The notes beneath the pieces are model-generated. The model had not been told where the DNA came from. It was given only the letters and a program-made list of their open reading frames with translations, and did not search any database. Below are positions 19,731 to 41,439 of a stretch of 64,000 nucleotides of DNA, one piece after another. The stretch lies in the sequence record PP680568.1, one strand, 5' to 3'. The position numbers and the translations under genes are program-made. Origin of the DNA: Enterococcus phage VRE9_2. Numbering within the stretch: position 1 is the first letter of the stretch; every line of letters starts with the position of its first letter.

Positions 19731-21771
19731 ATGTTAAATGTAATGAAAAAAGATGGTCATATTGAAATTTTTGACACGAAGAAAATTCAGGAGGCAATTT
19801 TAGCTTCTGCAAGGAAAATTCTTTCTAATGAAGAAGAATATGATATGCAGCAAAAAGCTTTAATTATTGCGAATGAGGTAGCTCGTTTCTTAAATTCAAC
19901 TGAAGATGAAAATGCAGTTATTATGACATCTAAAATTCATAATGTTGTTCTGGAGATTCTATCCAAAGAATGGGAAGTCGTTGGAGCTTCTTATGGAATG
20001 TATAGAAACTATAGAAAACAAATGGCTAAAACATTTTTAAAAAGTTATGAGGAATCTGAAACTGTACTCCACGATGGAGATAAAGAAAATGCTAATAAAG
20101 ATAGTGATTTGAATAGTACAAAACAAGCTTTAATTGCAAATAATAATATGCGTGGTTATATGGAAACATTTGAAATGGATAAAGATTGGATTGAAGCTCA
20201 TAAACAAGGTTGGATACACATTCATGATTTAGCAGAGCGTTATTTGCGCCAGCAAAATTGTTGTTTGTTTAACATGGCAGGTTTATTAGATGGTGGGTTC
20301 CAATTAAATGGAACAGTTTATGCAGAGCCTAAACATTTTGATTCTGCTATTAATGTAGTAGGAGATGTTACTTTGTTTGCATCTGCACAGCAATATGGCG
20401 GTTTTACTATTCCTGAAATAGATACTGTTTTAGCTAAATACGCTGAAAAAAGTTATCAATCAAATTTAAAATTTATTTTAGATAAATTTGGAGATATTAC
20501 TAATGAAGATATTATGGAAACACTAGAACAAACAGCTTACGACATGACTGTTAGAGAGCTAGAACAAGGCTTTCAAGGCTTTGAAACAAAATTAAATACA
20601 ATTAGTAATTCTTTAGGACAAATTCCTTTTGTAACAATTACTTTTGGTTTGGATACAACTCAATGGGGAAGAGAAATTTCTAAAGCTATTTTGAATGTAC
20701 GGATTAAAGGGATTGGAGAAAATAAATCAACAGCGGTATTTCCTAAATTATCTTTTTTACATAGAAAGGAAATTAATGGAAATCCAGAATCTCCTAATTA
20801 TGATATTAAACAATTAGGGATTCAATGTTCTCGATTAAGATTATATCCTGATTGGCTGTCCCTAGATAGTGGAAATCTTGCAGAAGTATATGAAAGATCT
20901 AATCAAGTTGTATCTGGGATGGGATGTCGAGCATATTTAAGTCCATTTTGGGACGAGCAAGGAAATGAAATTTACACTGGACGATCTAATATTGGAGCCG
21001 TTACATTGAACCTTCCTAAAATTGGTTTAGAATCAAAAGGGGATTGGAATAAATTTTTTGATCTAGTAGATAAATATTCTGATATTGTTTTTGCTATTCA
21101 TGAAGATTATTATACTAAAATTAGTAAAACAAAAGGTTCTTCTAACCCTCTATATTTCTGTGAAGGTGGAGCTTGGACAAAAGTAGGCTATGATGAAGAA
21201 GTTGGGAAGATATATGAAGCTTCAACTGCTTCATTGGGATATATTGGAATTTATGAAACATTAAAAGCAATGAATGTTTCAAAAGAAGAATATCTTAAAT
21301 ATGGGACTAAAATTGTTGCATATTTGAAAAAATTAACAGAAAAAGCTACAATTAATTATAATCATTTATATGCACTTTATTCAACCCCAGCAGAAAGTTT
21401 ATGCTATAGATTCCAGAAAATTAATCGTAAATATTATGGAGTAATTGAAGATGTAACTGATAGAGAGTACATTACAAATTCTTTCCATGTTCCAGTATGG
21501 GAAGATGTTAGCGTTCCTGAAAAAATTGCTTTTGAAGCACCATTCCATAAACTTGCAACAGGTGGGCGAATTTCTTATAATGAATTTGTTTATGGAGTAG
21601 ATAATTCTGTGCTAGAACAAGCAATTAACTTTGCTATGGAAAATGGAATGTATTATGGAGTTAATGTTGTTGCAGGAACTTGTAATCAATGTGGTTATAG
21701 TGGAGATTTCCATGACAATTGTCCTAAATGTGGTACCCATGATATTACAGTAGTAACGAGAGTTTGTGGGT
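19731..21771 (+). CDS. nrdD: anaerobic ribonucleoside-triphosphate reductase NrdD, exon 1
   Basis: N-terminal ATP cone (MKKDGHIEIFDTKKI), class III body, C-terminal Zn ribbon CNQCG...CPKCG, ends ...VTRVCG then intron; exon ends in U as expected for a group I 5' splice site. Confidence 0.8.
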
Positions 21772-22809
21772 TAACTATAAAAAGTTCTCTTTAAAAAACT
21801 TAAAGGCTCACGTAAAACAGGATAAATTGCGGGAACATCCTAAAGTTCTTAACTACTAAGCAAATATAGTGATATATTTGTGGCTGAACTAATCACTCAG
21901 GTATAGTAAAAAGGTTAAGAAATTGGACAATCCGCAGCGATACCTCTCATTAGAGAGAGACGTTCAACGACTATAAACCTGCTCTGGCTTAATTTTAAGC
22001 TAAATGTATAGTCTAGTCCGAGATAATATGTAGTATAATAGGAGTTGTTACAGTATAGATTTTTATGTATACATTCATTATACTAAAGATACAAAAGAAA
22101 TATTTTATGTAGGTAAGGGTATAAATAACAGAGCTTATTCAAAAGTTAAACGAAATAAGTTTTGGTGGAATATTGTTAATAAGCATGATTATTGCTTAAA
22201 AATTTTATATTCAAATTTATCAGAAGAAAAGGCTTTCCTTTTAGAGAAGGAATTAATTAAAAATCTAAAAGCTATTGGATTAGCAAAAGCAAACTTCCAT
22301 GAAGGAGGTTCAGGAGGAAATACAATGAAATACGCCCCTCTTGGAGAAATCCAAAAGTGGAAAGAAAGTTTATGCTCCGCTCAACAAAATTTAGATTTAG
22401 AAACTAGACAAAGATTAAGTCAAATTCGTAGTCTAAATGTAAGCGGAGATAAAAATCCTCAATTTAATAAGCCTGGATTTAATACAGGTCGCAAATTTTC
22501 TGATGAACATAAAAATAAAATTAGCAATGCTTTAAAACAATATTCTATGACAGAAGAACACAAACAAAATATAACAAAATCACACAACAAATATCTATTA
22601 AAGGTTATTACAGATAATGGAGAAGAAATGATTTTTAGTTCTCTAAAGGAAGCTTCTGAAACACTAGGAGTTCCTAAGACTACATTATCTAGTTGTGGAC
22701 ATGGAAATAATGGCAGAAACAAAACCCATTATTCTTCCAAATATAAACTTACTGCATATTATCTAACATAAGTATCCCGAAAGGGACGGTAGATTCGATT
22801 TATCCTTTG
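21772..22809 (+). mobile_element. group I (IA-like) self-splicing intron in nrdD carrying a GIY-YIG homing endonuclease ORF
   Basis: core elements read in sequence: P AATTGCGGGAA (21825-21835), Q AATCCGCAGC (21929-21938), R GTTCAACGACTA (21962-21973), S ATAGTC (22008-22013); intron ends in G (22809); joining 21771 to 22810 gives ...TRVCG-Y-QIHGDSRYNPGKQKEVKERVKHNFK*. Confidence 0.78.
22055..22771 (+). CDS. intron-encoded GIY-YIG homing endonuclease (I-TevI/I-TevII-like) with NUMOD-type C-terminal repeats; start codon non-canonical or uncertain
   Basis: frame open from 22034: ..DFYVYIHYTKDTKEIFYVGKG...RAYSKVKRNKFWWN (GIY...YIG...R...N), later GRKFSDEHKNKISNALK NUMOD-like; no in-frame ATG/GTG/TTG before 22325; TAGGAG RBS at 22039-22044 then ATA at 22055. 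Confidence 0.65.
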   Translation: MDFYVYIHYTKDTKEIFYVGKGINNRAYSKVKRNKFWWNIVNKHDYCLKILYSNLSEEKAFLLEKELIKNLKAIGLAKANFHEGGSGGNTMKYAPLGEIQKWKESLCSAQQNLDLETRQRLSQIRSLNVSGDKNPQFNKPGFNTGRKFSDEHKNKISNALKQYSMTEEHKQNITKSHNKYLLKVITDNGEEMIFSSLKEASETLGVPKTTLSSCGHGNNGRNKTHYSSKYKLTAYYLT

Positions 22810-22889
22810 ATCAGATTCATGGTGACTCACGTTATAATCCTGGTAAACAAAAAGAAGTTAAAGAAAGAGTTAAACATAATTTCAAATAA
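22810..22889 (+). CDS. nrdD: NrdD exon 2 (glycyl-radical C-terminus)
   Basis: completes the codon TAT (Y) to give RVCGY; ..NPGKQKEVKERVKH matches the conserved NrdD C-terminal pattern PFNAGKQEEVKRRVKH as I recall it from E. coli. Confidence 0.75.
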
Positions 22890-22901
22890 AAGGAGAAATA
22901 T

Positions 22902-23195
22902 ATGAAAGAAAAGGAACAAGAGGTTATTGAAAAGTTATATGCTTATGTATCAGAAATGGATATTGTTTTAGCAGAAAAGAAACTACAAACAATTTCTTTA
23001 ATACTTTTTATTCTTATGGGAGGATATTGTTTAATCTTTTCTTGCCCTGTATTTATTAATATTGTTTCTTTATCCGGCTTAGCTTATTTTGCTTTTACTT
23101 TATTGGCAAATTTAATGCTTGAACAACTTTTGGATAAAGAAATTTCAAAAAATGAAGTTTTATTAGAACAAATTCTTAAAAATAAAGAGAAATAG
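22902..23195 (+). CDS. hypothetical membrane protein
   Basis: 97 aa with two hydrophobic segments; AAGGAG RBS. Confidence 0.45.
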   Translation: MKEKEQEVIEKLYAYVSEMDIVLAEKKLQTISLILFILMGGYCLIFSCPVFINIVSLSGLAYFAFTLLANLMLEQLLDKEISKNEVLLEQILKNKEK

Positions 23196-23217
23196 AAAGA
23201 AAGGAAGTTTTTTAAAA

Positions 23218-23385
23218 TGATGTTTATTGCAGTTTTTTGTGGGATTTGTATCCTATTATTAATTGGTTCTGGAATGAAAGCAAATATAGGAAGAGATACT
23301 ACGAGATTAGAGAATATGGCTTACTTAATGTTTGCCATATTCTTAATTTTGTTTATCCTAATTTTAATTGGGGGAGCATAATATG
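23218..23385 (+). CDS. small hydrophobic protein (55 aa)
   Basis: ORF MMFIAVFCGICILLLIG...; below the ORF-track length cutoff; AGGAAG RBS. Confidence 0.3.
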
Positions 23386-23904
23386 GCTTATTTACACAAT
23401 ATAAAAAAATATGATATGGAAAACAGTGGTTTAAAAGGAGCCTCAGTTTCTTTATGGTTTAATCATTGTCCACATCATTGCCCAGGATGCTGGAATTCAG
23501 AAACTTGGGAAAGAAATGAAAACTTATATGAGGATAACCAAGAGGTAATAGAAGAGGTGCTCGATGGTCTTGATGGAGGACCAATGAAATTAAATACTCT
23601 TGCTCTTTTGGGAGGAGACCCTCTCAGTCCTAAAAATATAAAAGATACATTAGAAATTTTATCGGCAGTTAAAACAAAAAGACCAGAGACAGAGGTTATC
23701 TGTTGGACTGGTTTTACTTGGGAACAAGTAACTAAAAGTAAGTTACTTAAACCAGTATTAGAATATTTAGATGTATTAATTGATGGTCGTTTTATGATAG
23801 ACCGTAGAATCGAAGGTAAAAAATATGGTTCTGACAATCAAAGATGTATTGATGTGAAAAAATCTCTTCAATGTGATAAAATATATTTAATGGAGGGATT
23901 TTAA
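23383..23904 (+). CDS. nrdG: anaerobic RNR activating enzyme (radical SAM) NrdG
   Basis: CPHHCPGC = CxxxCxxC cluster motif; start moved to MAYLHN with GGGGGAG RBS. Confidence 0.78.
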   Translation: MAYLHNIKKYDMENSGLKGASVSLWFNHCPHHCPGCWNSETWERNENLYEDNQEVIEEVLDGLDGGPMKLNTLALLGGDPLSPKNIKDTLEILSAVKTKRPETEVICWTGFTWEQVTKSKLLKPVLEYLDVLIDGRFMIDRRIEGKKYGSDNQRCIDVKKSLQCDKIYLMEGF

Positions 23905-24212
23905 TGTTTGGTCTTAATAAAAAAACAGAAAAAAATTCTGTGAAAAAGTATCGTAAAAAACCTGTTGAAGTAGAAGTATGGCTTTTTAATAGAGAAAATT
24001 TGGAAACAGCAGAAAGTTGGGTACGCAAGTATTCAGATAAAATGGTTTTATTTTCTCAATATGGTGGAGAAAAAATTTGGATAGAAATAAAAACTTTAGA
24101 AGGTGTAATGAAAGCTTCTGAAGGAGACTATATTATAAAAGGAATCAATGGAGAATTATATCCTTGTAAACCAGATATTTTTCTCAAAACTTATGAAGAG
24201 GTGACAAATTAA
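23904..24212 (+). CDS. hypothetical protein
   Basis: 102-aa ORF, translationally coupled. Confidence 0.45.
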   Translation: MFGLNKKTEKNSVKKYRKKPVEVEVWLFNRENLETAESWVRKYSDKMVLFSQYGGEKIWIEIKTLEGVMKASEGDYIIKGINGELYPCKPDIFLKTYEEVTN

Positions 24213-25135
24213 TGTATGAAACAATAGTTATAGGTGGCGGACCAGGAGCGATGTCTGCCATTCTTTATTTATCTCGACTTGGTTTAAAAACTGCATGGAT
24301 CTATGGTTATGGTTTTGGAGGACAAATTCAAAATACAGAAGTTGTAGATAATTATCTTGGGAAGGGAAAAATTTATGCCCCAATCTTAGTAAAAGATATG
24401 TACTCTCATGTAGAAGATCTAGAACATGTTACACAAATTTTTGGTATGGCTGAAAATGTTAATAAAATTGATGATTCAACTTTTATAGTAACTACTGATA
24501 CGGGAGAAAAAATTAGTGGTAATACTGTATTAGTTGCAACTGGAGCTTCTCCTAGAAAACTTGGAGTTAAAGGAGAAGAAGATTTTGCTGGTTTTGGCGT
24601 CTCTTATTGCGCTATTTGTGATGCTCCTTTATTTAAAGATAAAGAAGTAGCAATTGTTGGTGGTGGACAAACTGCTTTAGAAGATGCACAAATCCTATCT
24701 CGTCATGCAAAAAAAGTATATTTAATTCATAGACGACAAGAATTTAGAGCAACAAATGCCGAAGTAAAACAAGCAAAAAATACTTCAAATATCCATTTTC
24801 TCTTGGATACACAAGTTACTTCTATCATGGGAGAAGACAAAGTTGATTTTATTGTTATTAATGAAAAGGGAATTGGTCATAGAACTTTATCAGTGGATGG
24901 TATTTTTATAGCTGTAGGACAAGTTCCGCAAACTGATTTTTTAATTGAAAATTTTAATTATATTTTACGAGATGGTTATGTAGAAACGATGAGAAACAAT
25001 AAGGTAGAAGATTTAGGCATCTTTGCCATTGGAGATGTAGTTTATGGGAATAATAAACAAATTGCTATTGCTGTAGGAGAAGGTGCAAATGCCGCAATAG
25101 AAATTAATAAATATTTATCAGATCCTAATTTTTGA
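24212..25135 (+). CDS. trxB: thioredoxin-disulfide reductase
   Basis: VIGGGPGAMSA FAD-binding GxGxxG, redox CAICDAP (CxxC), second GxGxxG VGGGQTALEDA, 307 aa. Confidence 0.82.
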   Translation: MYETIVIGGGPGAMSAILYLSRLGLKTAWIYGYGFGGQIQNTEVVDNYLGKGKIYAPILVKDMYSHVEDLEHVTQIFGMAENVNKIDDSTFIVTTDTGEKISGNTVLVATGASPRKLGVKGEEDFAGFGVSYCAICDAPLFKDKEVAIVGGGQTALEDAQILSRHAKKVYLIHRRQEFRATNAEVKQAKNTSNIHFLLDTQVTSIMGEDKVDFIVINEKGIGHRTLSVDGIFIAVGQVPQTDFLIENFNYILRDGYVETMRNNKVEDLGIFAIGDVVYGNNKQIAIAVGEGANAAIEINKYLSDPNF

Positions 25136-25191
25136 TTTTTTATATATAAAATGTTAATATAAATATATAACAAAATAGGAGGACAAAAATT

Positions 25192-26004
25192 ATGACTGTA
25201 TATGCTATGTCAGATATCCATGGAAATTTTCAAGCCTTAGAAAAAGCTTTAGATTTCTTATTTAATAAAACAAAAATTTCTATTGGTGAAGATAAACTTA
25301 TTTTTCTTGGAGATTATATTGATCGTTCTCCTGATGGATATTCTGTTTTAAAGACTATTTATGATTTACAGCAAAAACATGGAAAAGAAAATATTATTGT
25401 TTTAATGGGAAATCATGATGAAATGTTTTTGGAATGGTTGAAACAGCCTTATAATACTCTTCATCTAATTAATGATAAACCATTAATAACCGTCAAAAGT
25501 TTTATAAAACCTCTTAACAAGGGGTGGAACTTGATTTTTGACGGCGTAAATGCTATTTACGATATAAGTGACCCTAATAATCAAGTTAAAGTTACACAAG
25601 AAGTTGTTGATACAATTAAAGCAGAATATAAAGAATTATTAGATTGGTATCAAGATTTAGATTATTTTTATGAATATGGAAATGCTTTGTTTGTTCATGC
25701 CGGTTTTGAAGAAGTACCAAGCTGGCATTGGACAGATTCTTCTAAAGAAGAAATGACCTGGAAATATCCAGCTTCTTTTGGTTATACTCCGTGGAATAAA
25801 CAAATTGTAGCAGGTCATATAATGACAAGAGAGTTGCATCCAGAAGGAGTTCCCCAAGAGAAAGAAGATTCAATTTATAGAAATAAGGATCATATTTTTA
25901 TTGACGGGGCTACACCAATTACAAATCATATTAATATTTTGGCTTATGATGAAAATGGTTATCTATACTATGATGCTGAGACAGGAGAAATTTTACCAGA
26001 ATAA
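25192..26004 (+). CDS. calcineurin-like metallophosphoesterase (PPP-family, PrpE/ApaH-like)
   Basis: SDIHGN, GDYIDRSPDG, GNHDEM motifs. Confidence 0.78.
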   Translation: MTVYAMSDIHGNFQALEKALDFLFNKTKISIGEDKLIFLGDYIDRSPDGYSVLKTIYDLQQKHGKENIIVLMGNHDEMFLEWLKQPYNTLHLINDKPLITVKSFIKPLNKGWNLIFDGVNAIYDISDPNNQVKVTQEVVDTIKAEYKELLDWYQDLDYFYEYGNALFVHAGFEEVPSWHWTDSSKEEMTWKYPASFGYTPWNKQIVAGHIMTRELHPEGVPQEKEDSIYRNKDHIFIDGATPITNHINILAYDENGYLYYDAETGEILPE

Positions 26005-26082
26005 CCTAAGCTTTTTATTATCATTATTAATTTTCCCTTTTTATTATCTTTAGCAGAGATAAATAAAGAGAGGAGAATTAAC

Positions 26083-26313
26083 ATGAGAATCAATGCAGAT
26101 AAAATAAGAGAATATAGAGAAGAGCATGGAATTAGCATCGATGAGATGGCTGAAATTCTTAATATAGATGGAGAAGCACTTTATGAATACGAAAGTGGAG
26201 TTCCATGGTTTGAAGAAGATGCCTTAACTATTTTTACGATTAATAATATTTGTGATAATTTAGATTTTATTGCTATAGATGTTGATGAATTATTTGAAGA
26301 ATATAATATTTAA
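26083..26313 (+). CDS. small helix-turn-helix (XRE-like) protein
   Basis: 76 aa, IREYREEHGISIDEMAEILNI. Confidence 0.45.
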   Translation: MRINADKIREYREEHGISIDEMAEILNIDGEALYEYESGVPWFEEDALTIFTINNICDNLDFIAIDVDELFEEYNI

Positions 26314-26509
26314 TTTTATAAAATTCAACTATTGGATTCCCTTTAGTTGAATTTTTTTATTTAAAATTATATAATATATATATAAGTTAATTAAGAAAGG
26401 AAGTTGCTTAATGAAAGAAGAAATTTTGAACATCCTATTAGTTGATTTGAAAGAAGATTTAGATAGAGAATTAATTGTAGCAGTGGATTTACTTTAGGAG
26501 GCGAAAAGT

Positions 26510-26962
26510 ATAGAAAAAATTGTTAAGATTCATGTAGATGGAAGTTACAAGCAAAAAGTAAACCCTAATGTAGCTGGTTGGGGTTTTTGTATTGAAGCAG
26601 AAGAGCAAGAAGTTTTATATACTGCTTCCGGTATCGTAAATAACCCAGTCTCTAGACAAATTGATGGAGAAATTCAAGCCGCCAAAGAAGCTATTAATTG
26701 GTGTCTTGAAAATGTTATAGATAAAGTAAATACAAAAATTGAAATATATCATGATTATGAAGGCTTAGGAAAATGGGCTGATAATCTTTGGAAGACAAAT
26801 AAACCCTTAACTACAGAATATAAACTTTTTGTTTCTAATGCTCGATTCTCAGGACTTAAAGTTTATTTTATATGGGAAAAAGGTCATAATAATAATTTCT
26901 TTAACGAAATTGCAGATGAATTAGCAACTTCTGCTGTTGAAGATTCTGCCAACATAAAATAA
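26510..26962 (+). CDS. rnhA: RNase H (type 1-like); start codon non-canonical or uncertain
   Basis: KIVKIHVDGSYKQ...GWGFCIE...EIQAAKEAINW...HDYEG..KWADN..W: D-E-D-(H/D) arrangement of RNase H fold; no in-frame ATG/GTG/TTG; AGGAGG at 26496-26501 then ATA at 26510; in frame with the small ORF at 26411..26497 across one TAG. Confidence 0.62.
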   Translation: MEKIVKIHVDGSYKQKVNPNVAGWGFCIEAEEQEVLYTASGIVNNPVSRQIDGEIQAAKEAINWCLENVIDKVNTKIEIYHDYEGLGKWADNLWKTNKPLTTEYKLFVSNARFSGLKVYFIWEKGHNNNFFNEIADELATSAVEDSANIK

Positions 26963-27002
26963 TATTCTATAAGTAGAATAAATAAAAATAGGAGGTTTTA
27001 AA

Positions 27003-27728
27003 ATGAATAAAGATTTATTAGTAAGGGGTGTAAAAAGTACAGTAAAAACAGTAGAAACAAAATTAAATAGAAAAGTTCATTCTGTATATTTAACAGGTAG
27101 TACTCTTTATGGAGTTTCTACTTCCGAAAGTGATTTTGATTTTAAGGTTTATGTATATCCCACTTTTTCAGATTTGTGCTTTAACGAAAAGCTTTCTAAA
27201 GAGGTGGCTGTTAATGAAAATAATGTAGAACATGTCTCTGTAAGAGATGTTCGATTTCAGTATGATGAACTCAATAAATTGTCCCTCAATAGCGCCCACT
27301 TACTTCATCCTCCTCTTTTGGGGAAAAGATTATTCACAGAAGAACAATTAACACAAGTTTTGGAAGAAAGAAAAGATAATTTTCTTTTTAGTCTTGCTGG
27401 CGTCTCTTTGTCAGAATCTAAAAAGGAAGATTCAGGAAAAAAACTTTCAAGAATGTTATTGTTAGAAAATATGTTTACTGCTGTTTTAGAGGATAAATTT
27501 ACCCTAAATTATTTTTTTGATAAAGATTCTTCTAAAGAAGTATTGGTTAGAGAAAATTTTCATAGATATACAGATTTTGCTAAATTAACTCCTGAAGAAT
27601 TAATGTTGACAGCTAAAGATTTTAAAAAAGAATATAAGGTTAATCATAAAAAATTGGAAAATGTTCTAAAAAATCAATTACTACAAACAGTAAAAACATT
27701 TTACAATGTAGGAAAGGAAGTATATTAA
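27003..27728 (+). CDS. minimal nucleotidyltransferase (pol-beta superfamily)
   Basis: LTGSTLYGVSTSESDFDF = GSx9-13Dx[DE] NTase signature. Confidence 0.6.
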   Translation: MNKDLLVRGVKSTVKTVETKLNRKVHSVYLTGSTLYGVSTSESDFDFKVYVYPTFSDLCFNEKLSKEVAVNENNVEHVSVRDVRFQYDELNKLSLNSAHLLHPPLLGKRLFTEEQLTQVLEERKDNFLFSLAGVSLSESKKEDSGKKLSRMLLLENMFTAVLEDKFTLNYFFDKDSSKEVLVRENFHRYTDFAKLTPEELMLTAKDFKKEYKVNHKKLENVLKNQLLQTVKTFYNVGKEVY

Positions 27729-27925
27729 TGTTTAACATATTAATTACAAAAGATATGGTAATGAACGGAATTACAATCAAAAACGTTCCTGTTAAACAAT
27801 TAGAAGGTAAGGATGCTCCTGGGATTACAAAAGGAGTGGCTAGTAAAATTCAAGATTTGGTTTGGAAAGCTAATGCTCTTAAAATTGATGTAATAGATTT
27901 TAGTTATAATTTAGGGAAAGAATAG
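27728..27925 (+). CDS. hypothetical protein
   Basis: 65-aa ORF, coupled. Confidence 0.4.
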   Translation: MFNILITKDMVMNGITIKNVPVKQLEGKDAPGITKGVASKIQDLVWKANALKIDVIDFSYNLGKE

Positions 27926-27939
27926 GAGAAGAGATTTTT

Positions 27940-28311
27940 ATGTTTCTTAATTATGATGAAGGTTTAGTAAAAGATTATATAGATAAAAATATTGTTCAAC
28001 CTGTACTAAAATTAATTGAACAGACAATAGAAGATGCTGGCAAAAATCCTTCAGAATGGGATTTTTTGAATTTATCTATTTCTTTAAATGACACTGAATT
28101 AAAATATATTGAAGCTTTTGGAGAAAATAAATTTTATTTTCGGTTCATGGAAGAAAACATTCATGTATATATTCGCAATAAAGAATTGTATATCACAAAA
28201 AAGAGAAAATCTGGAATTCAGCTTTCTGACGTCTTAAACGAAGAAAATATGGAACTAACAGCGAATCAAATTAGTAGTTTTTTAGAACAATACTTTAAGG
28301 AGGAAGAATAA
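27940..28311 (+). CDS. hypothetical protein
   Basis: 123-aa ORF. Confidence 0.45.
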   Translation: MFLNYDEGLVKDYIDKNIVQPVLKLIEQTIEDAGKNPSEWDFLNLSISLNDTELKYIEAFGENKFYFRFMEENIHVYIRNKELYITKKRKSGIQLSDVLNEENMELTANQISSFLEQYFKEEE

Positions 28312-29172
28312 TTGAATACATTAAAAATGGATCATTTTGTTGCATCTAGTATTTCTGAAATCCTAGACAATGGAGTTAATTCTTTAGGAGCTCGTCCTAA
28401 ATACGCCTCTGATGGAAAAACCGCTAATAGTAAATATATAACAGATGTATTTATCAAATTTTATTTAGACAAGGGAGAGTTACCCATTAGCAGATTACGT
28501 CCTGTATATACTGGATTAGCTAGGCAGGAACTTTTTTGGATATATCAAGACCAAACATCTGATTTGCAGCCATTAAGAGATAGAGGAGTTCATTGGTGGG
28601 AAGATTGGGCTTTAGAAAATGGAACTATTGGGCAACGTTACGGAGCAACAGTTAATCGCTATAAACTAATTGATAGATTAATAGAAGGATTGGAAAAAAA
28701 TCCATATAATCGTAGAAATATTATTAATTTATGGCAATATAAAGACTTAGATGAAACAGAAGGTTTAATGCCATGTGCTTTTCAAACTATTTGGGATGTT
28801 AGAGAAGTTAATGGAGAAACGTTTTTGGATATGAGTTTAATTCAGCGTAGTTCAGATTTTCTTGTAGCTGGTATGGGTATTAATCAAATCCAATATGTAG
28901 CATTACAAATGATGGTAGCTAAACATTTTGGGTGGAAAGTAGGAACTTTTTCTTGGCATGTAATGAACTTGCATATTTATGATAGATATTTTACTCAAGC
29001 TCAAGAATTAGTTGCTAGATTTGAAAGGATGAACCAAGAGGAACAAAAAGAAATTGAGTTTTATTTGGACGTTCCTGACAAAACTAATTTTTATAATATA
29101 AAACCAAGCGATTTTGTACTAAAGGGTTATTCTTCTGTAGGAGATCAGATGAGATTTGATATGGCAATTTAA
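28312..29172 (+). CDS. thyA: thymidylate synthase (or dUMP hydroxymethylase-type) ThyA-family enzyme
   Basis: LMPCAFQ (nucleophile Cys; PCA instead of PCH), QRSSDFLVAGMGINQ (Asn specifying dUMP), HIYD; TTG start with AAGGAGG RBS. Confidence 0.8.
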   Translation: MNTLKMDHFVASSISEILDNGVNSLGARPKYASDGKTANSKYITDVFIKFYLDKGELPISRLRPVYTGLARQELFWIYQDQTSDLQPLRDRGVHWWEDWALENGTIGQRYGATVNRYKLIDRLIEGLEKNPYNRRNIINLWQYKDLDETEGLMPCAFQTIWDVREVNGETFLDMSLIQRSSDFLVAGMGINQIQYVALQMMVAKHFGWKVGTFSWHVMNLHIYDRYFTQAQELVARFERMNQEEQKEIEFYLDVPDKTNFYNIKPSDFVLKGYSSVGDQMRFDMAI

Positions 29173-29182
29173 TAATAAATTA

Positions 29183-29210
29183 AGACACCTTAAATGGTGT
29201 CTTTTTTTTG
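29183..29210 (+). terminator. rho-independent terminator
   Basis: AGACACCttaaatGGTGTCT followed by T8. Confidence 0.6.
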
Positions 29211-29282
29211 TACTTTTTGGCTATAGGATTTTAACGTATTTGAGCTAGGAAAGTCTCAAAAAATAAAAGGAAGGTGTAAAAT

Positions 29283-29597
29283 ATGTTTAAAGAAAAAGAT
29301 TTACTTATCCCAATTGGCGTATTTACAGTCGGGGAATCTAAAGAAGATTATATCGAAATGGACCCGTATGAAAAAGGCACTGTTGACAAGTTAAAAGAAT
29401 ATAATGAAAATGGTGTAGTAGAGATGACTGCAGAGGGCGAAAAGAAAGATTTTGATGGATATTCAAAAGGAGATTTCTTCTCTTTTGGAGATAAGGGATT
29501 TCCAGTAGTTCGAAGCAATGAAATTTTTACTAAGTTAGATGTAGATGGACAATTACTATCATTCCCTAATCATAAACTTATGGAAGGTGATAAATAA
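29283..29597 (+). CDS. hypothetical protein
   Basis: 104-aa ORF. Confidence 0.45.
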   Translation: MFKEKDLLIPIGVFTVGESKEDYIEMDPYEKGTVDKLKEYNENGVVEMTAEGEKKDFDGYSKGDFFSFGDKGFPVVRSNEIFTKLDVDGQLLSFPNHKLMEGDK

Positions 29598-30817
29598 TGA
29601 CTCGTTTTTATAAAGGAATCGCTGGGCGTCGAGGGGCTAACCCATCAGGTGTAGTTATTCACAATGATGCAGGCTCTGTTTATGCTAATGCTGCATTTTA
29701 TCGTGGATGGTTACCTTCTCATGATGCAGAAAATGGCTTTGCTCATTATTACGTAGCTAGTGATGGAACATTCCAAGCAGAAGATGAAATGAATATGGCA
29801 TGGCATACTGCGAACTCAACTGGTAACGCATATTATATCGGTATTGAAGCATGTCAATCAATGGGACCAGAAAATATTTTCCGACAAAATGAAGAAAATT
29901 CTATTAAACTAGCAGCTCAAATCTTAAAGAGATATGGTTTACAACCTAATAGAAATACTGTAAAATTGCATAAACAATTTTCAGCAACTTCTTGTCCTCA
30001 TCGTTCTGTTGCTTTGCATGGCGATGGATACGTAATGCAAGATTATTTTATTGCTCGTATTAAATCTTATATGGGTTCTAATCCAACCCCAGCCCCAGCA
30101 CCAAATACTGGAACTAGAAAATATAATATTGATCTAGTTAATATGAATTCAAAAGCTTTCCAAATCAAAGGTTGGTTTACCCCAGCTAAGGCTACAAAAG
30201 GTCAAGATATTTGGGTTTATATTATGAAAAAAGGTGGACCAGAAATTGCCCGCTTTAAAGCGAAAAAAATTCAACGTCCAGACGTTCAAAAAGCAGTTTC
30301 AAATCCTAACGGAGCAGATGTTGGTTTCCAAGTAGATGCTCTTACACCAGAAGGTGTCCTAGGAAAAGATTTTGATTTATTGCTTCGTTACAATAATGAT
30401 AACAAAGAAGAAATTCGCACTAAAGAGCATTGGAAAGCTCCTGCATTAATTAATGAAGGATACCTAGATAAAGTTGCTGGAGATGCCAAAGGTGTTACAT
30501 TCGCTGGATGGCATTTAAATACACGTCAAAAAGATGGATTTAAACATTATCTATTTGTAACTGACGCAAAAACTGGGAAAGAATATGTACGATTTGATAT
30601 TACAGGAGGATCTTACTTAGCTTCTCCAGATATCACTAAAAAGTATGGTCCAGAAATTGCTCAACGTAGTAACTGTCGTTTCCATAATTGGTGCGCATTA
30701 GCAGCAAATCATCCAGCTAGAGGTAAAACTGTTAATATTATTAGCCGTTATGCTCCTGCAAAAGAAATTGATACAAAAACTTCTACAGATAAACTGTGGG
30801 GGACTTATAGACTATAA
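29597..30817 (+). CDS. endolysin: N-acetylmuramoyl-L-alanine amidase (amidase_2/PGRP) with C-terminal cell-wall-binding region
   Basis: VIHNDAG...NMAWHTAN...YIGIEACQS...FSATSCPHRS zinc-amidase motifs; about 250-aa C-terminal binding domain. Confidence 0.82.
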   Translation: MTRFYKGIAGRRGANPSGVVIHNDAGSVYANAAFYRGWLPSHDAENGFAHYYVASDGTFQAEDEMNMAWHTANSTGNAYYIGIEACQSMGPENIFRQNEENSIKLAAQILKRYGLQPNRNTVKLHKQFSATSCPHRSVALHGDGYVMQDYFIARIKSYMGSNPTPAPAPNTGTRKYNIDLVNMNSKAFQIKGWFTPAKATKGQDIWVYIMKKGGPEIARFKAKKIQRPDVQKAVSNPNGADVGFQVDALTPEGVLGKDFDLLLRYNNDNKEEIRTKEHWKAPALINEGYLDKVAGDAKGVTFAGWHLNTRQKDGFKHYLFVTDAKTGKEYVRFDITGGSYLASPDITKKYGPEIAQRSNCRFHNWCALAANHPARGKTVNIISRYAPAKEIDTKTSTDKLWGTYRL

Positions 30818-35473: not shown

Positions 35474-35549
35474 TACTTGAGTGGTCTTAAAAAGGAAAGA
35501 CGCATGGTTTAATCTTCCATGAGACGTTGGTTCGAGTCCAACCTCAAGA
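35474..35549 (+). tRNA. tRNA-like gene with 9-nt anticodon loop (anticodon region ..UUUAAUCUU..), atypical
   Basis: acceptor cttgag/ctcaag, D-arm gtct/agac, T-arm gttgg-TTCGAGT-ccaac; anticodon stem catgg/ccatg encloses 9 nt. Confidence 0.35.
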
Positions 35550-35630
35550 ATATCAGGATTGGCTATCCTTTCACCTTATAGCTAGAGGTTGATAAATATA
35601 AAGTGGAATTAACCACAGTTGGCTGCTCCC

Positions 35631-35745
35631 TAGGTTAAAGAAGATACCTATTGGGTCGGGGCATAAGCTAAGTTAACTAATAAACAACTTCTTTTAGTTA
35701 GCTTTTCTCACGAGTGATTGTTGAGGTTCAATTCCTTCTTAACCT
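35631..35745 (+). ncRNA. tRNA-like element (T-arm plus acceptor complementarity but 115 nt overall)
   Basis: aggttaa ... gagg-TTCAATT-cctt-ttaacct; internal region too long for a canonical tRNA. Confidence 0.2.
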
Positions 35746-35810
35746 ATGGGCGGGACAACACTCTATCGGAGATAAAAATATATAATTTAGTTTAATATTC
35801 TCGAGAATGG

Positions 35811-35905
35811 TTGAGATATGGCGGAAAGGTAGACGCAAGGAGAGTCTCCCCATTGGAGACCCCTGTGCATGACGATGCAGTGTAGGTTCGAATCCTACTA
35901 TCTCA
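35811..35905 (+). tRNA. type II tRNA (Leu-like D-arm GGCGGAAAGGTAGACGC); anticodon not resolved
   Basis: perfect acceptor tgagata/tatctca, T-arm gtagg-TTCGAAT-cctac, variable hairpin tgcatgacgatgca; anticodon arm irregular. Confidence 0.45.
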
Positions 35906-36026
35906 GTTAAATAGGGACTAGAGCTAATTTATTTTAGCCAGTCCTTATCCCGAAAGGGAAAAATAATTTGACATTTTGAACATAATATGTTATAATTATT
36001 ATATAATAAAGATAAGAAATATAAAA

Positions 36027-36098
36027 CGGCTTGTTGGTCAAGAAGTTAAGACGCTCGACTTTCACTCGGGAATCACAGGTGCAAATCCTGTACAAGTC
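36027..36098 (+). tRNA. tRNA-Glu (UUC)
   Basis: manual fold: acceptor 7 bp, AC stem ctcga/tcggg, loop cuUUCac, T-loop TGCAAAT. Confidence 0.7.
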
Positions 36099-36188
36099 AT
36101 TAACATTATTTGAAAAAAATCTTTCAAAATGTTATAATTAATATGTAAAAAGAAATAAAAAAAATTATTTTAAAAGGAGAGGTTCATC

Positions 36189-36581
36189 ATGGAAAAACAA
36201 ACTAAAGCAGATATGTATCGTAATGCAGCAAAATTGTTGGAAGTAAATGCTCCTGAATATGCAGAAATGTTATTGGAAGATGCTCAAAGAATTGAAGCTC
36301 GTAACGCAAGTCGTCGAAATGTTGATACCAAAGTTCAAAAAGAAAATAAACACATCGCTGCTTTAGTAATTGAGTTTTTCCATAATGATGCTGAAGATGG
36401 AATCGCTTATGACAGTGGTGAAATTGCAAATGCAGTTGGGATCGAAGTTTCTCCTCAGAAAATGTCAGCAATTATGCGTTTAGTTGGGGATGAAGTAGAT
36501 AAAATGAACCAAGCTACGAATAATAAAGATCATGTTGGATATAAAAAGAAAGGAACTGAATTAGTTCCTGATGAAAAATAG
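36189..36581 (+). CDS. small protein, TPxxL..KKYKVK-tail family
   Basis: N-terminus MEKQTKADMYRNAAKLLEVNAPEYAEML like the ORFs at 57477 and 63003; tail SPQKMSAIMRLVGDEVDKMNQATNNKDHVGYKKKG. Confidence 0.55.
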   Translation: MEKQTKADMYRNAAKLLEVNAPEYAEMLLEDAQRIEARNASRRNVDTKVQKENKHIAALVIEFFHNDAEDGIAYDSGEIANAVGIEVSPQKMSAIMRLVGDEVDKMNQATNNKDHVGYKKKGTELVPDEK

Positions 36582-36628
36582 GACAAAATGTCTTAATTAA
36601 ATATCCCCATATTTTATTGGGGATACAC

Positions 36629-36703
36629 CAGGGTATAGGAGAATTTGGTTAATCCGCTGCATTTGGGATGCAGAGATTGTTGGTTCAAATCCAGCTACCC
36701 TGA
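36629..36703 (+). tRNA. tRNA-Pro (UGG)
   Basis: C1-G72 acceptor cagggta/taccctg, AC stem ctgca/tgcag, loop uuUGGga. Confidence 0.7.
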
Positions 36704-36779
36704 TTTGAACAACGTGTTAGAACGTTGGGCGTGAAGGGATTTATCCTATGAAGGGATTTATCCTAACACGTTTAAACAT

Positions 36780-36850
36780 TCACCTATGATGAAATGGTAT
36801 CATGACTGGCTGTTAACCAGTTCTTGTAGGTTCGAATCCTGCTGGGTGAG
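36780..36850 (+). tRNA. tRNA-Asn (GUU)
   Basis: acceptor tcaccta/tgggtga, D atga/tcat, AC actgg/ccagt, loop cuGUUaa. Confidence 0.7.
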
Positions 36851-36856
36851 TATTTT

Positions 36857-36939
36857 GCGAGAGTGGCGGAATTGGCAGACGCACTAGATTTAGGATCTAG
36901 CGTTTTCATAACGTGTGGGTTCAAGTCCCACCTCTTGTA
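36857..36939 (+). tRNA. tRNA-Leu (UAG), type II
   Basis: D gcg/cgc, AC ctaga/tctag, loop uuUAGga, variable hairpin cgtt..aacg. Confidence 0.7.
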
Positions 36940-36948
36940 TAATAAAAT

Positions 36949-37032
36949 GGAGAGTCCCTGTTGGCTAAAGGAAGAATGTTTTGAAAGCATTTGGCGGTAA
37001 CACGTCCAAGGGTTCGATTCCCTTACTCTCCT
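36949..37032 (+). tRNA. tRNA-Ser (UGA), type II (probable)
   Basis: acceptor ggagagt/actctcc, AC stem gaatgt/gcattt (6 bp incl. U-G), loop uuUGAaa, T-loop TTCGATT. Confidence 0.55.
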
Positions 37033-37089
37033 TAAAGAATCTTACAGCAAATATTAATACTTTTAATAATATTTGGGAAAAAATAAGGT

Positions 37090-37192
37090 CTAGGTTCGAC
37101 CCCTAGTATAAGTTTGGTACAACTTATATGGTGTAATGGTAGCACACAAAAGATAGATTCTTGTTTTTGGGGAAGGTACCTCCCCAGTATTT
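37090..37192 (+). ncRNA. degenerate tRNA-like element: T-arm+3' acceptor directly followed by a 5' acceptor+D-arm
   Basis: ctagg-TTCGACC-cctag tataagt (8 nt) acttata tg gtg-taatggtag-cac; tataagt/acttata are mutually complementary. Confidence 0.25.
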
Positions 37193-37276
37193 GGAGGATT
37201 ATGCAAATTGGTGAAGCAAGTGGTCTGTAAAACCATGACGTAAGATACATTGGGGGTTCGAATCCCTTGTCCTCCA
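37193..37276 (+). tRNA. tRNA-Tyr (GUA), type II
   Basis: acceptor ggaggat/gtcctcc, AC gtggt/accat, loop cuGUAaa. Confidence 0.7.
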
Positions 37277-37436
37277 TAGACTGCCTTTGTCAAGCAGTCG
37301 AATGTAACTAATTTTTTCATTAAATAAATATCAAATTGTGGCTGATTTCTACAGATTCAGAGCGGAGCATCCCCGCAGGTTGGGCATACTACAGTCCCCC
37401 ATGACTTTCATGGGTTGCACATAGTTAGGAGGTAGC

Positions 37437-37622
37437 ATGATGTATTTAAAATTCATTGGTTTAAACGGAAGTTTAGGTTTAGAGAAGGACAAGATATACT
37501 TTGTTACCTCTGAGATAACTGAATATTATATTATTTTGAGAATACAGGGTGTTCACGGTAAGACAGTAATGTGTCCATACGAAACATTAGAAAAAATGTT
37601 AGAAAATTGGCAGGTCTGTTAG
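37437..37622 (+). CDS. small hypothetical protein between tRNAs
   Basis: 61 aa, AGGAGG RBS. Confidence 0.35.
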   Translation: MMYLKFIGLNGSLGLEKDKIYFVTSEITEYYIILRIQGVHGKTVMCPYETLEKMLENWQVC

Positions 37623-37707
37623 TGTGTAAATAGCAAGGTCTGCATAAAACCTAAGAAACAGCACGCACAGAAGATTATGTATTGTCTCCCTTTTGGACAA
37701 ACATTTT

Positions 37708-37779
37708 GGCGCTATGGTCAAGCGGTTAAGACACTGGTCTTTCTAACCAGAATCCCGAGTTCGAATCTCGGTAGCGTCA
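37708..37779 (+). tRNA. tRNA, anticodon ambiguous (loop CUUUCUA: UUC read, U at 37)
   Basis: acceptor ggcgcta/tagcgtc, T-arm ccgag-TTCGAAT-ctcgg, AC stem ctggt/accag. Confidence 0.5.
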
Positions 37780-38001
37780 TAAAGAACGATACAGCAAACC
37801 TATTAAAATATTACAGAAGAGATTATGTAAGGAGCCGTAGATACCAACCGAAAAATCTACGAGTTCAATTATGGTTGGCGTTTGAGTTTTTTCTAGGTAC
37901 TTTCCTTGAGTTACGTTAACACTCGAAAAAGGTCTAAACCTCGTTCTTGATAAATAAACACAACTTTCCTTTCTTCCTGTCCATGTCACTGGACAGGTAA
38001 C

Positions 38002-38087
38002 GCGGGTATGGTGGAATTGGCAGACACATCAGACTTAAGATCTGACGAGAGGTATCTCTCATGCAGGTTCGACTCCTGCTATCCGTA
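38002..38087 (+). tRNA. tRNA-Leu (UAA), type II
   Basis: D gtg/cac with GAATTGGCAGA loop, AC tcaga/tctga, loop cuUAAga, variable hairpin gagag..ctctc. Confidence 0.7.
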
Positions 38088-38159
38088 TAAAGAACCTAAC
38101 AGCAATCACATTTAAAGGGATAATAGTATATCTAATAATATATAGGTTCTTGTTTTTTA

Positions 38160-38235
38160 TAGCTGGCGGCTGGTTGGATATCAGGGCAGGGTTCATAACC
38201 CAGCATAACTCAGTTCGATTCTGAGGCGTAGCAAT
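38160..38235 (+). ncRNA. degenerate tRNA-like element with two consecutive T-arm-like hairpins
   Basis: ggg-TTCATAA-ccc and ctcag-TTCGATT-ctgag followed by gcgtagc; no complementary 5' acceptor found. Confidence 0.25.
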
Positions 38236-38415
38236 ATTATTGAGGAAGAGCTAACCTGGCGAAAATATGCTCAGAGGAAAAAACCTGGCGAAAAATTAGC
38301 CCCTAGTCAAATTTCCACTTTGGCGGCTAGGTTGAGGCGCACAATAGGCATAAAGACACCTCGTAAAAGGGCAAGCGCAGTGTCCTTACCCAAATAAAAC
38401 AGCGGCAGCCTTTAC

Positions 38416-38487
38416 GCTGGTTTCGTATAATGGCTATTACAGTTGACTTGTAATCTTCAAATGGGAGTTCGATTCTCTCAACCAGCA
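38416..38487 (+). tRNA. tRNA, anticodon uncertain (UGA read in loop GUUGACU)
   Basis: perfect acceptor gctggtt/aaccagc, T-arm gggag-TTCGATT-ctctc; AC stem ttaca/tgtaa; short D-arm. Confidence 0.45.
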
Positions 38488-38585
38488 TTTATAAATGAAT
38501 GAGGCATTGGTTAGGTCTAAAATAGATATAGGGGTATTTAGTTATCTACGGATGCTAAATATTGTGTAATTCATTTTATTTTTTT

Positions 38586-38658
38586 CGATGATTCGTTCAA
38601 ATGGATAGGACGCTAGACTACGGATCTAGTAATAGAGGTTCAAGTCCTCTATCATCGG
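38586..38658 (+). tRNA. tRNA-Arg (ACG)
   Basis: acceptor cgatgat/atcatcg, AC ctaga/tctag, loop cuACGga. Confidence 0.7.
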
Positions 38659-38766
38659 TAGTATAAGGAATGATATTTCGCTTATACGAAACGTTAAGAG
38701 ATTCTCACACTGACGTCCCAATAGAGAAGGGTTTGAATAATCTTCCTTCTCTTGGTTTTTAATTTA

Positions 38767-38837
38767 TGCGCTGTTGGTGTAGTGGTATCACATCTGGCTC
38801 CAAACCAGAAAATGGGGGTTCGATTCCTTCACGGCGT
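38767..38837 (+). tRNA. tRNA-Trp (CCA)
   Basis: D gtg-TAGTGGTAT-cac, AC tctgg/ccaga, loop cuCCAaa. Confidence 0.65.
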
Positions 38838-38960
38838 GTTAGTATTTATCCTAATATTTATGATACCATGTAGAAGATATAAATAATAGGAAATAGGCTA
38901 GTCGTACAGAAAATGCCTATAGCAGCTTTAATAGCTGTCGCTTGATTTTTTAGCTATTAC

Positions 38961-39031
38961 ACCCCTATAATTTAATGGTAAAATACTGTGCTGATAACGC
39001 AGATTCCCTTGTTCGATTCAAGGTAGGGGTA
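38961..39031 (+). tRNA. tRNA-Ile (GAU)
   Basis: acceptor accccta/taggggt, D attt/aaat, AC ctgtg/cgcag, loop cuGAUaa. Confidence 0.7.
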
Positions 39032-39065
39032 TTTCTCTTTAATAAAAATAGAGGAAGGTAAAATA

Positions 39066-39557
39066 ATGTTTAGATGTGAAATTTGTGGCAAGGAATTTGA
39101 CAGTCCCCTTAAACTAGGAGGGCACAAATCCTCTCATTCAAGAGGAAAGAGAAAAGACTGCAAAAAAGAAATTAATTGTTTATATTGTAATAAAACTATG
39201 ACTGTCAATAAATCAGATAAAAAACAATATTGTTCTGTTGAATGTTTTAGAGCTCAAGTACAAGAAGATAAAAACAATCGTTTTGTTGTAATTAGAAGCG
39301 AGAAACATGGCAATCATGTTTTAGACATTACTGTCAAAGAACTAGAAGACTATCGGCAAAAACAATTAGTTTGTGAGATTTGCGGCAACAAAGAAATCAT
39401 CAAAAATGGAACTATAAAATTATCAGTCGATCACAACCATGAAACTTATAAATTTAGAGGTTTGCTATGCTATGCATGTAATGTTAAATTAGCTTGGTTA
39501 GAGAAAGAGTGGGATAGCATTAAATCTTACTTAGAAAGAGATAATTTTAAGTTTTAG
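39066..39557 (+). CDS. HNH endonuclease with N-terminal C2H2-like zinc finger
   Basis: CEICGKEF...HKSSH; VDHNHETYKFRGLLCYACN HNH motif. Confidence 0.7.
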   Translation: MFRCEICGKEFDSPLKLGGHKSSHSRGKRKDCKKEINCLYCNKTMTVNKSDKKQYCSVECFRAQVQEDKNNRFVVIRSEKHGNHVLDITVKELEDYRQKQLVCEICGNKEIIKNGTIKLSVDHNHETYKFRGLLCYACNVKLAWLEKEWDSIKSYLERDNFKF

Positions 39558-39651
39558 TATTAATTTTTTTTTATTTAGATAGGAGAGCTTGGATAATATG
39601 AAGAAAAGATTAAACAAACTATAAATATCTTATAAAGGAGGTATTTATAAT

Positions 39652-39903: not shown

Positions 39904-39993
39904 AACTCCCTAAGATAGGGAGTTTTTTATTTGAAAAATTTAATTTAAAATGATATAATTAATTATAAGGACAAATAAAAAGGAGATTCAAAA

Positions 39994-40640: not shown

Positions 40641-40708
40641 TTTGAAATTATTAATACAATATATTATAATTATATTATAAGATAAATAAAAGAAAGGAAG
40701 TTGTTTAA

Positions 40709-41378: not shown

Positions 41379-41439
41379 CTTTTTTAGCATAACATGTTAT
41401 AATATTTATATAAGTTAGGAAGAAAAAACTTCCTAATAT

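Follow-up and report, generated by a model that had tools for sequence, protein, structure and literature searches.

A group I intron with a putative homing-endonuclease gene interrupts the radical-glycine region of nrdD in Enterococcus phage VRE9_2

The nrdD gene of Enterococcus phage VRE9_2, which encodes the large subunit of a class III ribonucleotide reductase (RNR), is very probably interrupted by a group I intron, mobile and self-splicing, in which a homing-endonuclease gene resides. The analysis concerns a 64-kb stretch of this phage genome (PP680568.1), referred to here as the window, whose coordinates are used throughout; all features described lie on the + strand. The intron, 1026 nucleotides (nt) long, extends from 21772, the base after the U of the 5′ splice site, to a terminal G at 22797, and its insertion point separates the first from the second base of the Tyr codon next to the radical Gly (RVCG/Y, where the slash marks the insertion point, as elsewhere below). 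Exon 1 (19731–21771) comprises 680 codons up to ...TRVCG plus T, the first base of the Tyr codon, and exon 2 (22798–22889) begins with the AT that completes this codon, continues with LSFDQIHGDSRYNPGKQKEVKERVKHNFK and ends with the stop codon TAA (22887–22889). Through the restored TAT codon, the joined exons encode a 710-amino-acid NrdD that ends in ...RVCGYLSFDQIHGDSRYNPGKQKEVKERVKHNFK.

The open reading frame (ORF) at 19731–21794 (687 amino acids) was recognized as the class III large subunit from the ORF list and from its Pfam matches to NRDD (E 3.8e-130), ATP-cone and Gly_radical. Its C-terminus reads ...TRVCGLTIKSSL, a truncated end (...RVCGLTIKSSL before the stop), and the NRDD profile is covered only up to position 541 of 562. 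Some 1 kb further downstream, ...GDSRYNPGKQKEVKERVKHNFK is encoded by a frame that has its stop at 22889; an initial annotation of this DNA, which had proposed a group I intron in nrdD, placed both the truncated end and the downstream frame correctly. When exon 2 is added, the NRDD coverage grows from 541 to 562 of 562 positions, with a gain of 26 bits. The tail encoded by exon 2 aligns with the C-terminal ends of the solved NrdD structures 8p23, 9d3x and 1h78 (the T4 enzyme), with the shared pattern GYL...N.GK..E...RV.H, in keeping with the alignment to NrdD homologues that the initial annotation had proposed as a check. The NRDD domain, the RVxGY motif with its tail and an adjacent NrdG, all expected of a class III NrdD, are present, the full C-terminus only after splicing.

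The boundaries of the intron are given by intron-less alleles. A megablast search of 19731–22900 against phage records returned five Enterococcus phages at 95–97% identity and no copy of the intron itself. VRE9_3, H1 and VRE9_4 match over only about 2144 base pairs (bp), in two pieces, with the intervening kilobase absent; exon 1 has 96–97% nucleotide identity to nrdD of VRE9_3 and H1. In VRE9_3, nrdD is annotated as an uninterrupted gene (2133 nt, 710 amino acids, ending in ...TRVCGYLSFDQIHGDSRYNPGKQKEVKERVKHNFK) that reads ...GTTTGTGGATATCTTTCCTTTGAT... across the insertion site and is co-linear with window positions 19731–21771 plus 22798–22889. Because co-linearity with VRE9_3 holds up to T21771 and again from A22798, the intron is placed at 21772–22797, and the 5′ splice site after U21771 agrees with the one first annotated. 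At A22798, homology resumes as T/AT TTA TCC TTT GAT CAG (Y L S F D Q); since the intron-less nrdD of VRE9_3 and EF5 reads RVCGYLSFDQIHG..., exon 2 starts at 22798. The peptide of exon 2 is identical to those of the intron-less VRE9_3 and EF5 sites, with three synonymous nucleotide differences. Around the splice site, the intron-containing alleles read GGG-T/AT-TTA, whereas the intron-less alleles read GGA-TAT-CTT, and these synonymous changes fall exactly on the bases that the ribozyme helices P1 and P10 need. The predicted ligated junction, 21771/22798, reads ...GTTTGTGGGT/ATTTATCC..., the spliced complementary DNA (cDNA) is predicted to read ...AGAGTTTGTGGGT/ATTTATCCTTTGATCAG..., and the junction-spanning peptide would be VCGYLSFDQIHGDSR.

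The intervening RNA can be arranged as a P2-less group I ribozyme with P1, P3–P9 and a P5abc-type extension. The 7-bp P1 is formed by UGUGGGU, the last seven nt of exon 1 (21765–21771), and the internal guide sequence GCUCACG (21806–21812), with U21771 and G21806 in a wobble pair, and the P10 guide segment UAAA (21801–21804) pairs with UUUA of exon 2 (22799–22802). In the core, P3 pairs CAGG (21818–21821) with CCUG (21978–21981), P4 pairs 21828–21833 with 21931–21936, P5 pairs 21838–21842 with 21923–21927, and P5a pairs 21846–21853 with 21914–21921, followed by the P5b hairpin with its GUGA loop (21861–21880) and P5c (21884–21900). P6 (21937–21939 with 21961–21963) is extended by the P6a hairpin (21943–21959), and P7, in which GACUAU (21969–21974) pairs with AUAGUC (22008–22013), encloses the 3′ strand of P3 and the P8 hairpin (21986–22001). 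The core elements P (AATTGCGGGAA, 21825–21835), Q (AATCCGCAGC, 21929–21938), R (GTTCAACGACTA, 21962–21973) and S (ATAGTC, 22008–22013) named in the initial annotation are present and correspond to P4 (P and Q) and P7 (R and S); counted over both strands of the window, the strings P, Q and R have one occurrence each. The 5′ strand of P9 (UA at 22014–22015 and CCG at 22018–22020, with GU bulged) pairs across the endonuclease ORF with CGGUA (22787–22791), the beginning of a 3′ segment (22787–22797) whose tail runs to G22797, and just before it lies the P9b hairpin UCCC-GAAA-GGGA (22775–22786) with a GAAA tetraloop at 22779–22782. In the introns of the window and of the related locus L040, the P1 loop (21772–21805 in the window) contains about 24 extra nt, which can form a hairpin of AAGUU (21782–21786) with AACUU (21797–21801); the hairpin has one compensatory change between the two introns and shares one base with the P10 guide.

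This structure was evaluated with nine members of the intron family, which were aligned with their ORFs excised under a manually assigned P1 and P3–P9 structure with P7 as a pseudoknot. Standard pairs were formed in 88.5% of the cells, compared with 35–47.5% when the partners were slid by one to three columns, and compensatory changes occurred in 39 of 78 pairs; neither value was reached in any of 500 shuffles. The core helices P3–P8, including the P3/P7 pseudoknot, are supported by covariation as a set: all five family pairs of P3 are compensatory, P5, P5a, P5b, P5c, P6, P6a and P8 covary, and P4 and P7 are invariant, with P7 paired in 98% of the cells. P9 is paired in all nine sequences and has a switch between C-G and G-C at one pair (five versus four sequences), and P9b is fully paired, with covariation at four of its four pairs and an invariant GAAA loop. 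Since P9 and the GAAA hairpin are paired and covary, the segment downstream of the ORF belongs to the ribozyme. P10 occurs in the same register across the family as compensatory variants (UUUA with UAAA, UAUA with UAUA, and UGU with ACA), and the terminal G follows the 3′ strand of P9 by 6 nt in all family members, a spacing that G22797 fits. Three hallmarks of a group I intron, the splice-site U·G wobble in P1, the terminal G and a P10 with the 3′ exon, are found. Furthermore, the minimum free energy fold of the ORF-deleted core reproduces P1, P4–P5c (P5 and P5a among them), P6a, P8 and the GAAA hairpin. The Rfam Intron_gpI model matches 21754–22022 with 45.9 bits (E 3.4e-10) in a local scan of 21650–22950; it matches the P4, P6 and P7 strands and cannot bridge the 738-nt ORF to P9, and an ORF-less relative (L013) reaches 56.3 bits, above the gathering score. 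The Rfam match, the family covariation and the intron-less alleles agree in assigning the split of nrdD to a group I intron, as first annotated.

Several observations weigh against this assignment. The score of 45.9 bits is below the Rfam gathering score of 50 (RF00028), and scans of the whole window, at the gathering score or at E<=0.01, report only tRNAs, so the Intron_gpI scan suggested in the initial annotation gives a match below the gathering score locally and misses the intron window-wide. P1 is paired in 100% of the cells of the nine members, but most of its bases had been prescribed by the search pattern; with these bases set and the U·G pair invariant, no covariation test of P1 is possible. 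In addition, P3 of the window has only 4 bp and lies 1 nt off the family register, the core without its ORF reaches only a modest thermodynamic z-score of −1.9, and splicing itself is deduced from sequence.

A possible course of splicing follows from these pairings. The pre-mRNA may fold into the P2-less ribozyme described above, in which UGUGGGU of exon 1 would pair with the guide GCUCACG and present U21771 in the U·G wobble. An external guanosine could then attack after U21771, and the terminal G22797 could subsequently fill the G site. P10 (22799–22802 with 21801–21804) may align exon 2 for ligation of the exons, which would restore the TAT codon and the 710-amino-acid NrdD. In relatives that co-infect the same host cell and carry an intron-less nrdD, the intron-encoded enzyme presumably cuts that gene and so drives homing.

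The intron-borne frame (22034–22771; 245 codons, stop TAA at 22769–22771) lies in the P9 loop, and its best reading is a homing endonuclease of the GIY-YIG type whose DNA-binding tail resembles NUMOD3 and I-HmuI, in agreement with the GIY-YIG/NUMOD-type ORF of the initial annotation. In the protein, a GIY-YIG-type module appears to form the N-terminus, followed by NUMOD3 and, at the C-terminus, by a DNA-binding module like that of I-HmuI; the protein matches the homing endonuclease family PHROG 314 (E 9e-17). Among 31 homologues, the residues of the catalytic motif VYIHY-x8-FYVGKG-x3-R...E64...N80 either do not vary or show at least 90% conservation, and the family profile matches the GIY-YIG protein 9u75 in the PDB (E 1.5e-4) and, weakly, the DNA-binding parts of I-HmuI and I-TevI. 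An AlphaFold2 (AF2) model of the endonuclease has a mean predicted local distance difference test (pLDDT) score of 80, with values above 90 for residues 1–70. Foldseek searches with this model returned 9u75 (probability 0.99, E 0.02), 1yd4, which is the GIY-YIG domain of UvrC (probability 0.72, target-normalised template-modelling (TM) score 0.50), and I-HmuI (high probability), all with weak E-values. Compared with the 77%-identical L040 variant, the ratio of nonsynonymous to synonymous substitution rates (dN/dS) is 0.27 at a dS of 0.63, and none of 2000 shuffles at 28% GC keeps the 245-codon frame open; judged by these values, the ORF is under purifying selection. Searches with the endonuclease protein found one contig in IMG/VR and two in JGI metagenomes.

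Two features of this ORF count against an active endonuclease gene of the GIY-YIG type. Pfam reports only NUMOD3 and I-HmuI_NUMOD-like at E<0.01, and the GIY-YIG model PF01541 gives no match to the ORF at this threshold. The other is the start region, because of which the endonuclease may not be expressed: upstream of the catalytic motif there is no recognizable start codon of an expressible gene, the only nearby ATG (22028) is directly followed by an in-frame TAG (22031–22033), and no in-frame ATG, GTG or TTG occurs between this TAG and Met98 (before 22325). It is accordingly conceivable, if somewhat unlikely, that the intron splices while its endonuclease gene is dead or dying, so that the intron persists by vertical descent instead of homing. 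The missing start codon would fit this state, as would the lack of a suppressor tRNA with a CUA anticodon among the 17 tRNAs of the window and the frequent occurrence of ORF-less relatives of the intron, which the homing-cycle model expects. What speaks against decay is that four variants keep all 245 codons open, that the frame's substitution pattern and the shuffles point to constraint, that the ATA-containing start arrangement described below is conserved while the bases within it diverge, and that the intron differs at only 2 of 1026 positions between two phages whose exons are approximately 4% apart, which suggests a recent transfer.

The unusual start region spans 22028–22057 and consists of ATG-TAG (22028–22033), AGGAG (22040–22044), ten nt and an in-frame ATA (22055–22057). 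The arrangement is kept in four variants (window/L029/L106, L039, L040/L041 and L107; the L040/L041 and L107 proteins are 77% and 96% identical, respectively), while the intervening 10 nt diverge. ATA 22055 is situated where homologues have Met, two or three residues before the FYVY motif. A start at this AUA, possibly by re-initiation after the start-stop, is our best guess for the endonuclease. A more elaborate proposal is that the endonuclease is made from the conserved AUA 22055, perhaps by re-initiation after AUG-UAG or after a 9-codon upstream ORF (uORF), in a manner that spares P9; this is speculative and, on balance, improbable. If it held, few ribosomes would pass through the P9 region, the long-range pairing needed for splicing would be left undisturbed, and the demands of endonuclease expression and ribozyme folding would be reconciled in a novel manner. 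The 9-codon uORF has its ATG at 22004, inside P7, and is in the same frame as the ATG-TAG start-stop. ATG 22065 was rejected as a start, being out of frame with a frame that closes after 15 codons, and no internal promoter or terminator emerged from a consensus scan, which gave fewer promoter-like sites than shuffled sequences.

Reading TAG 22031 as a Gln codon (CAG) in relatives was likewise rejected. Two database proteins, P0001 and P0002 ('M...MQYNRS...'), suggest Gln at this position, but the DNA of L039 and L040 has TAG, and the look-up of both entries gave 'translates_to_query: no' (L039 301–1068; L040 297–1040). The Gln appears to be a gene-caller artefact, produced by a TAG-recoding translation table on short Logan contigs; such proteins could mislead start-codon calls that are based on homology. 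The 17 tRNAs of the window form a cluster at 35475–44836 on the + strand, which includes tRNA-Ile(UAU) and two tRNA-Glu(UUC).

A further alternative dispenses with splicing: nrdD would be disrupted and yield a truncated protein, or a separate product would supply the C-terminal tail, an arrangement like that of the split nrdA in phage Aeh1. Phages do have split RNR genes without introns (PMC3653736), and in EF1 and EF5 an HNH insertion without a detectable ribozyme lies elsewhere in nrdD. Exon 2 of the window, in contrast, has neither a start codon nor a ribosome-binding site of its own, and its frame opens in the middle of a codon. Despite this, its amino acids are conserved through synonymous changes (nine synonymous and one nonsynonymous codon changes in 19 codons relative to L040), and exon 2 is, by this pattern, under purifying selection. 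The complete, covarying group I core lies exactly between the two halves of nrdD, and nrdG is kept downstream. The activase partner of NrdD, a radical-SAM protein, is encoded by this nrdG (23368–23904; Pfam Fer4_12, E 2.3e-29, and Radical_SAM), 480 nt downstream of nrdD and at the position of the annotated activase in VRE9_3 and EF5. The unspliced product would lack the Tyr and 29 further C-terminal residues after the radical Gly and can reasonably be taken to be catalytically dead, whereas the predicted splicing restores RVCG-Y at the glycyl-radical motif and the stop codon as first annotated. This alternative without splicing is very improbable.

The least probable alternative keeps the same intron and moves the 3′ splice site 12 nt downstream to G22809, with exon 2 from 22810 and a product reading ...RVCGYQIHGDSRYN...: this junction, 21771/22810, was the one initially annotated and is in frame, G22809 is followed by AT, and the Pfam NRDD scores of the two junctions are indistinguishable (66.9 versus 67.1 bits), but it removes LSFD, four residues that every intron-less relative has and that exon 2 of L039 and L040 also encodes, gives GYQ where the solved structures 8p23 and 9d3x have GYL, misfits the family spacing of the terminal G, and makes P10 impossible, as 22811–22814 (exon 2 AUCAG...) cannot replace 22799–22802. 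The displacement arose because both sites share the context G/AT. The expectation that the exon ends in U (T21771 in the DNA) and the intron in G therefore holds, with G22797 in place of G22809 as the terminal base, and the 3′ junction is 22797/22798.

Introns of the same kind occur at the same site in other genomes. In a blastn search with the intron, the best match was at the nrdD end of Enterocloster phage CB457P1 (OP172753), and another lay just downstream of nrdD in Enterococcus phage iF6 (MT909815); both share the junction ...TGTGGGT/TAA...GGCTCAC..., with Y-IGTHYWNYGRTEEIRDRFVHL... and Y-LGQPQARPNAHGRKKEIDARAKHM encoded by the exons downstream. A pattern scan of IMG/VR with TGTGGGTTAA-N3-33-AGGCTCAC returned 33 loci, 14 of which are nrdD C-termini followed by a related intron, in at least eight distinct NrdD lineages. 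With the same pattern and one genome per prokaryotic species, 13 bacterial genomes were found, mostly of Clostridium, with ORF-less introns of 236–282 nt; the carriers include Clostridium cuniculi, C. paraputrificum NCTC11833, a metagenome-assembled genome (MAG) of C. perfringens, Sarcina ventriculi NCTC12966 and several Clostridium spp. Several bacterial introns are located at RRTCG/Y of nrdD (L051, L075, L086, L065 and other loci in L042–L104). All same-site introns are predicted to splice to CG-Y[LIV]... tails. Three other IMG/VR loci (L009, L020 and L030) have the TGTGGGT/TAA...GGCTCAC pattern after a different protein end, ...LAKLRNCG; either the match is due to chance or, possibly, another gene hosts an intron that uses this guide sequence. 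In the IMG/VR contig L018, a second Intron_gpI match (216–520; 55.1 bits, above the gathering score) lies approximately 2.2 kb upstream of the nrdD intron, in another gene.

A related phage contig of 133.8 kb, L029 (= L105/L106), is 94.5% identical to the window over 12.9 kb. The two introns have 2 differences in 1026 nt, compared with 32 in the last 790 nt of exon 1; because the intron is nearly identical while exon 1 has diverged, its arrival seems to postdate the split between its hosts and to reflect a recent transfer. The existence of close relatives without the intron is a further sign of mobility. The ORF varies across the family: it is a GIY-YIG gene in P9 in the window, a LAGLIDADG gene in P8 in iF6 (L011), an HNH gene in P8 in L035 and L007/L031/L036 (with L010 apparently interrupted), or it is missing altogether. 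Only the window, L029/L106, L039, L040/L041 and L107 were found to have a GIY-YIG gene in P9. Such a mixture of ORFs is the classic pattern left when homing-endonuclease genes invade a ribozyme independently, and we read the distribution of these sequences in this way.

The close relatives EF1 and EF5 (EF5 = MF001361, L002 3177–4189) have no intron at the Gly/Tyr site. In both, nrdD is split after nt 1677 by approximately 1 kb with an annotated HNH homing endonuclease, and Rfam found no group I core in the EF5 insertion at E<=0.1; the gene may be split here by an endonuclease that stands free of any intron, or by an intron that escaped detection. In the window, two small hydrophobic ORFs, at 22902–23195 (97 amino acids) and 23217–23381 (54 amino acids), lie between nrdD and nrdG, and hypothetical ORFs are annotated at both positions in VRE9_3 and EF5. 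No further introns or split RNR genes were found in 24000–29700, where uninterrupted ORFs with unrelated products lie (thioredoxin-reductase-like, phosphoesterase, thyA and amidase).

The element is a genuine group I intron with a homing-endonuclease gene, an ordinary kind of phage element, and it belongs to an under-annotated, widespread intron family that targets the context of the radical-glycine codon of nrdD. For VRE9_2-type phages, iF6, CB457P1 and several Clostridium genomes, GenBank and gene callers give a truncated nrdD and an orphan endonuclease; the real product would be the full-length enzyme made after splicing, and default Rfam thresholds miss the intron. TGTGGGT/AT would be a recurrent homing site, common to phages of different hosts and to Clostridium genomes. 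One ribozyme lineage with three endonuclease families in two positions points to gene, intron and intron ORF evolving independently. Current understanding is not overturned by these results; ever since T4, phage RNR genes have been known to harbour group I introns at critical codons. The one unusual feature is the start codon of the endonuclease.

For phages, there is good documentation of split nrdD genes and of introns in RNR genes (PMC3653736, PMC2988022, PMC12880540), and the curated RNRdb entries include over 100 group I introns from RNR genes (PMC2795772). In the literature searched, no description of an intron at the nrdD Gly/Tyr site was found, and the genome paper of iF6 does not mention the intron. 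The introns of Twort nrdE and SPbeta bnrdE/bnrdF are located at highly conserved, functionally critical RNR codons (PMC3653736); these are class Ib genes, and their sites differ from that of the window. The introns in nrdD of iF6, CB457P1, IMG/VR loci and Clostridium, on the other hand, agree with that of the window in the site (TGTGGGT/AT), in the guide GGCUCAC and in a core that is alignable and covarying (P3–P9, the P5abc extension and the GAAA hairpin), whereas these other introns at the nrdD Gly/Tyr site carry an endonuclease of another family or none. In GenBank, the iF6 and CB457P1 loci are annotated as a truncated nrdD and a separate endonuclease, with the intron unannotated. The core (approximately intron positions 54–202, P4–P7) is 72–76% identical by blastn to group I introns of SPO1-like Bacillus phages, Vibrio phages, phiPA3 and crAss-like phages; most of the blastn matches to the core lie in unannotated DNA, and the few with an annotated feature lie in other host genes, such as that of the RNA polymerase beta-subunit in PhiPA3.

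The best-known counterpart is the T4 nrdD (sunY) intron with I-TevII. Like that of the window, it resides in the gene of a class III RNR large subunit, and the T4 record gives a GIY-YIG-family endonuclease within the group I intron, the same type as here. Both introns start with UAAC after an exon-terminal U (for T4 with the junction 538/1571, favoured among four candidates), and in both, the ORF follows the core and leaves a short 3′ segment (approximately 235–1012 of 1033 nt in T4 and 263–1000 of 1026 nt in the window). The insertion sites differ, as the initial annotation had already noted. The T4 intron is inserted near codons 171–181 of 605, which align with approximately residues 270–287 of the window protein, and not at Gly580; the insertion in the window is after codon 680 of 710. 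T4 introns are classed as IA2, with P7.1/P7.2, whereas the intron of the window has no helices between P7 and P3 or P8. T4-like phages are furthermore not represented among the 39 blastn matches to the intron. On these sequence comparisons, the relationship to the T4 nrdD intron is one of analogy, not orthology.

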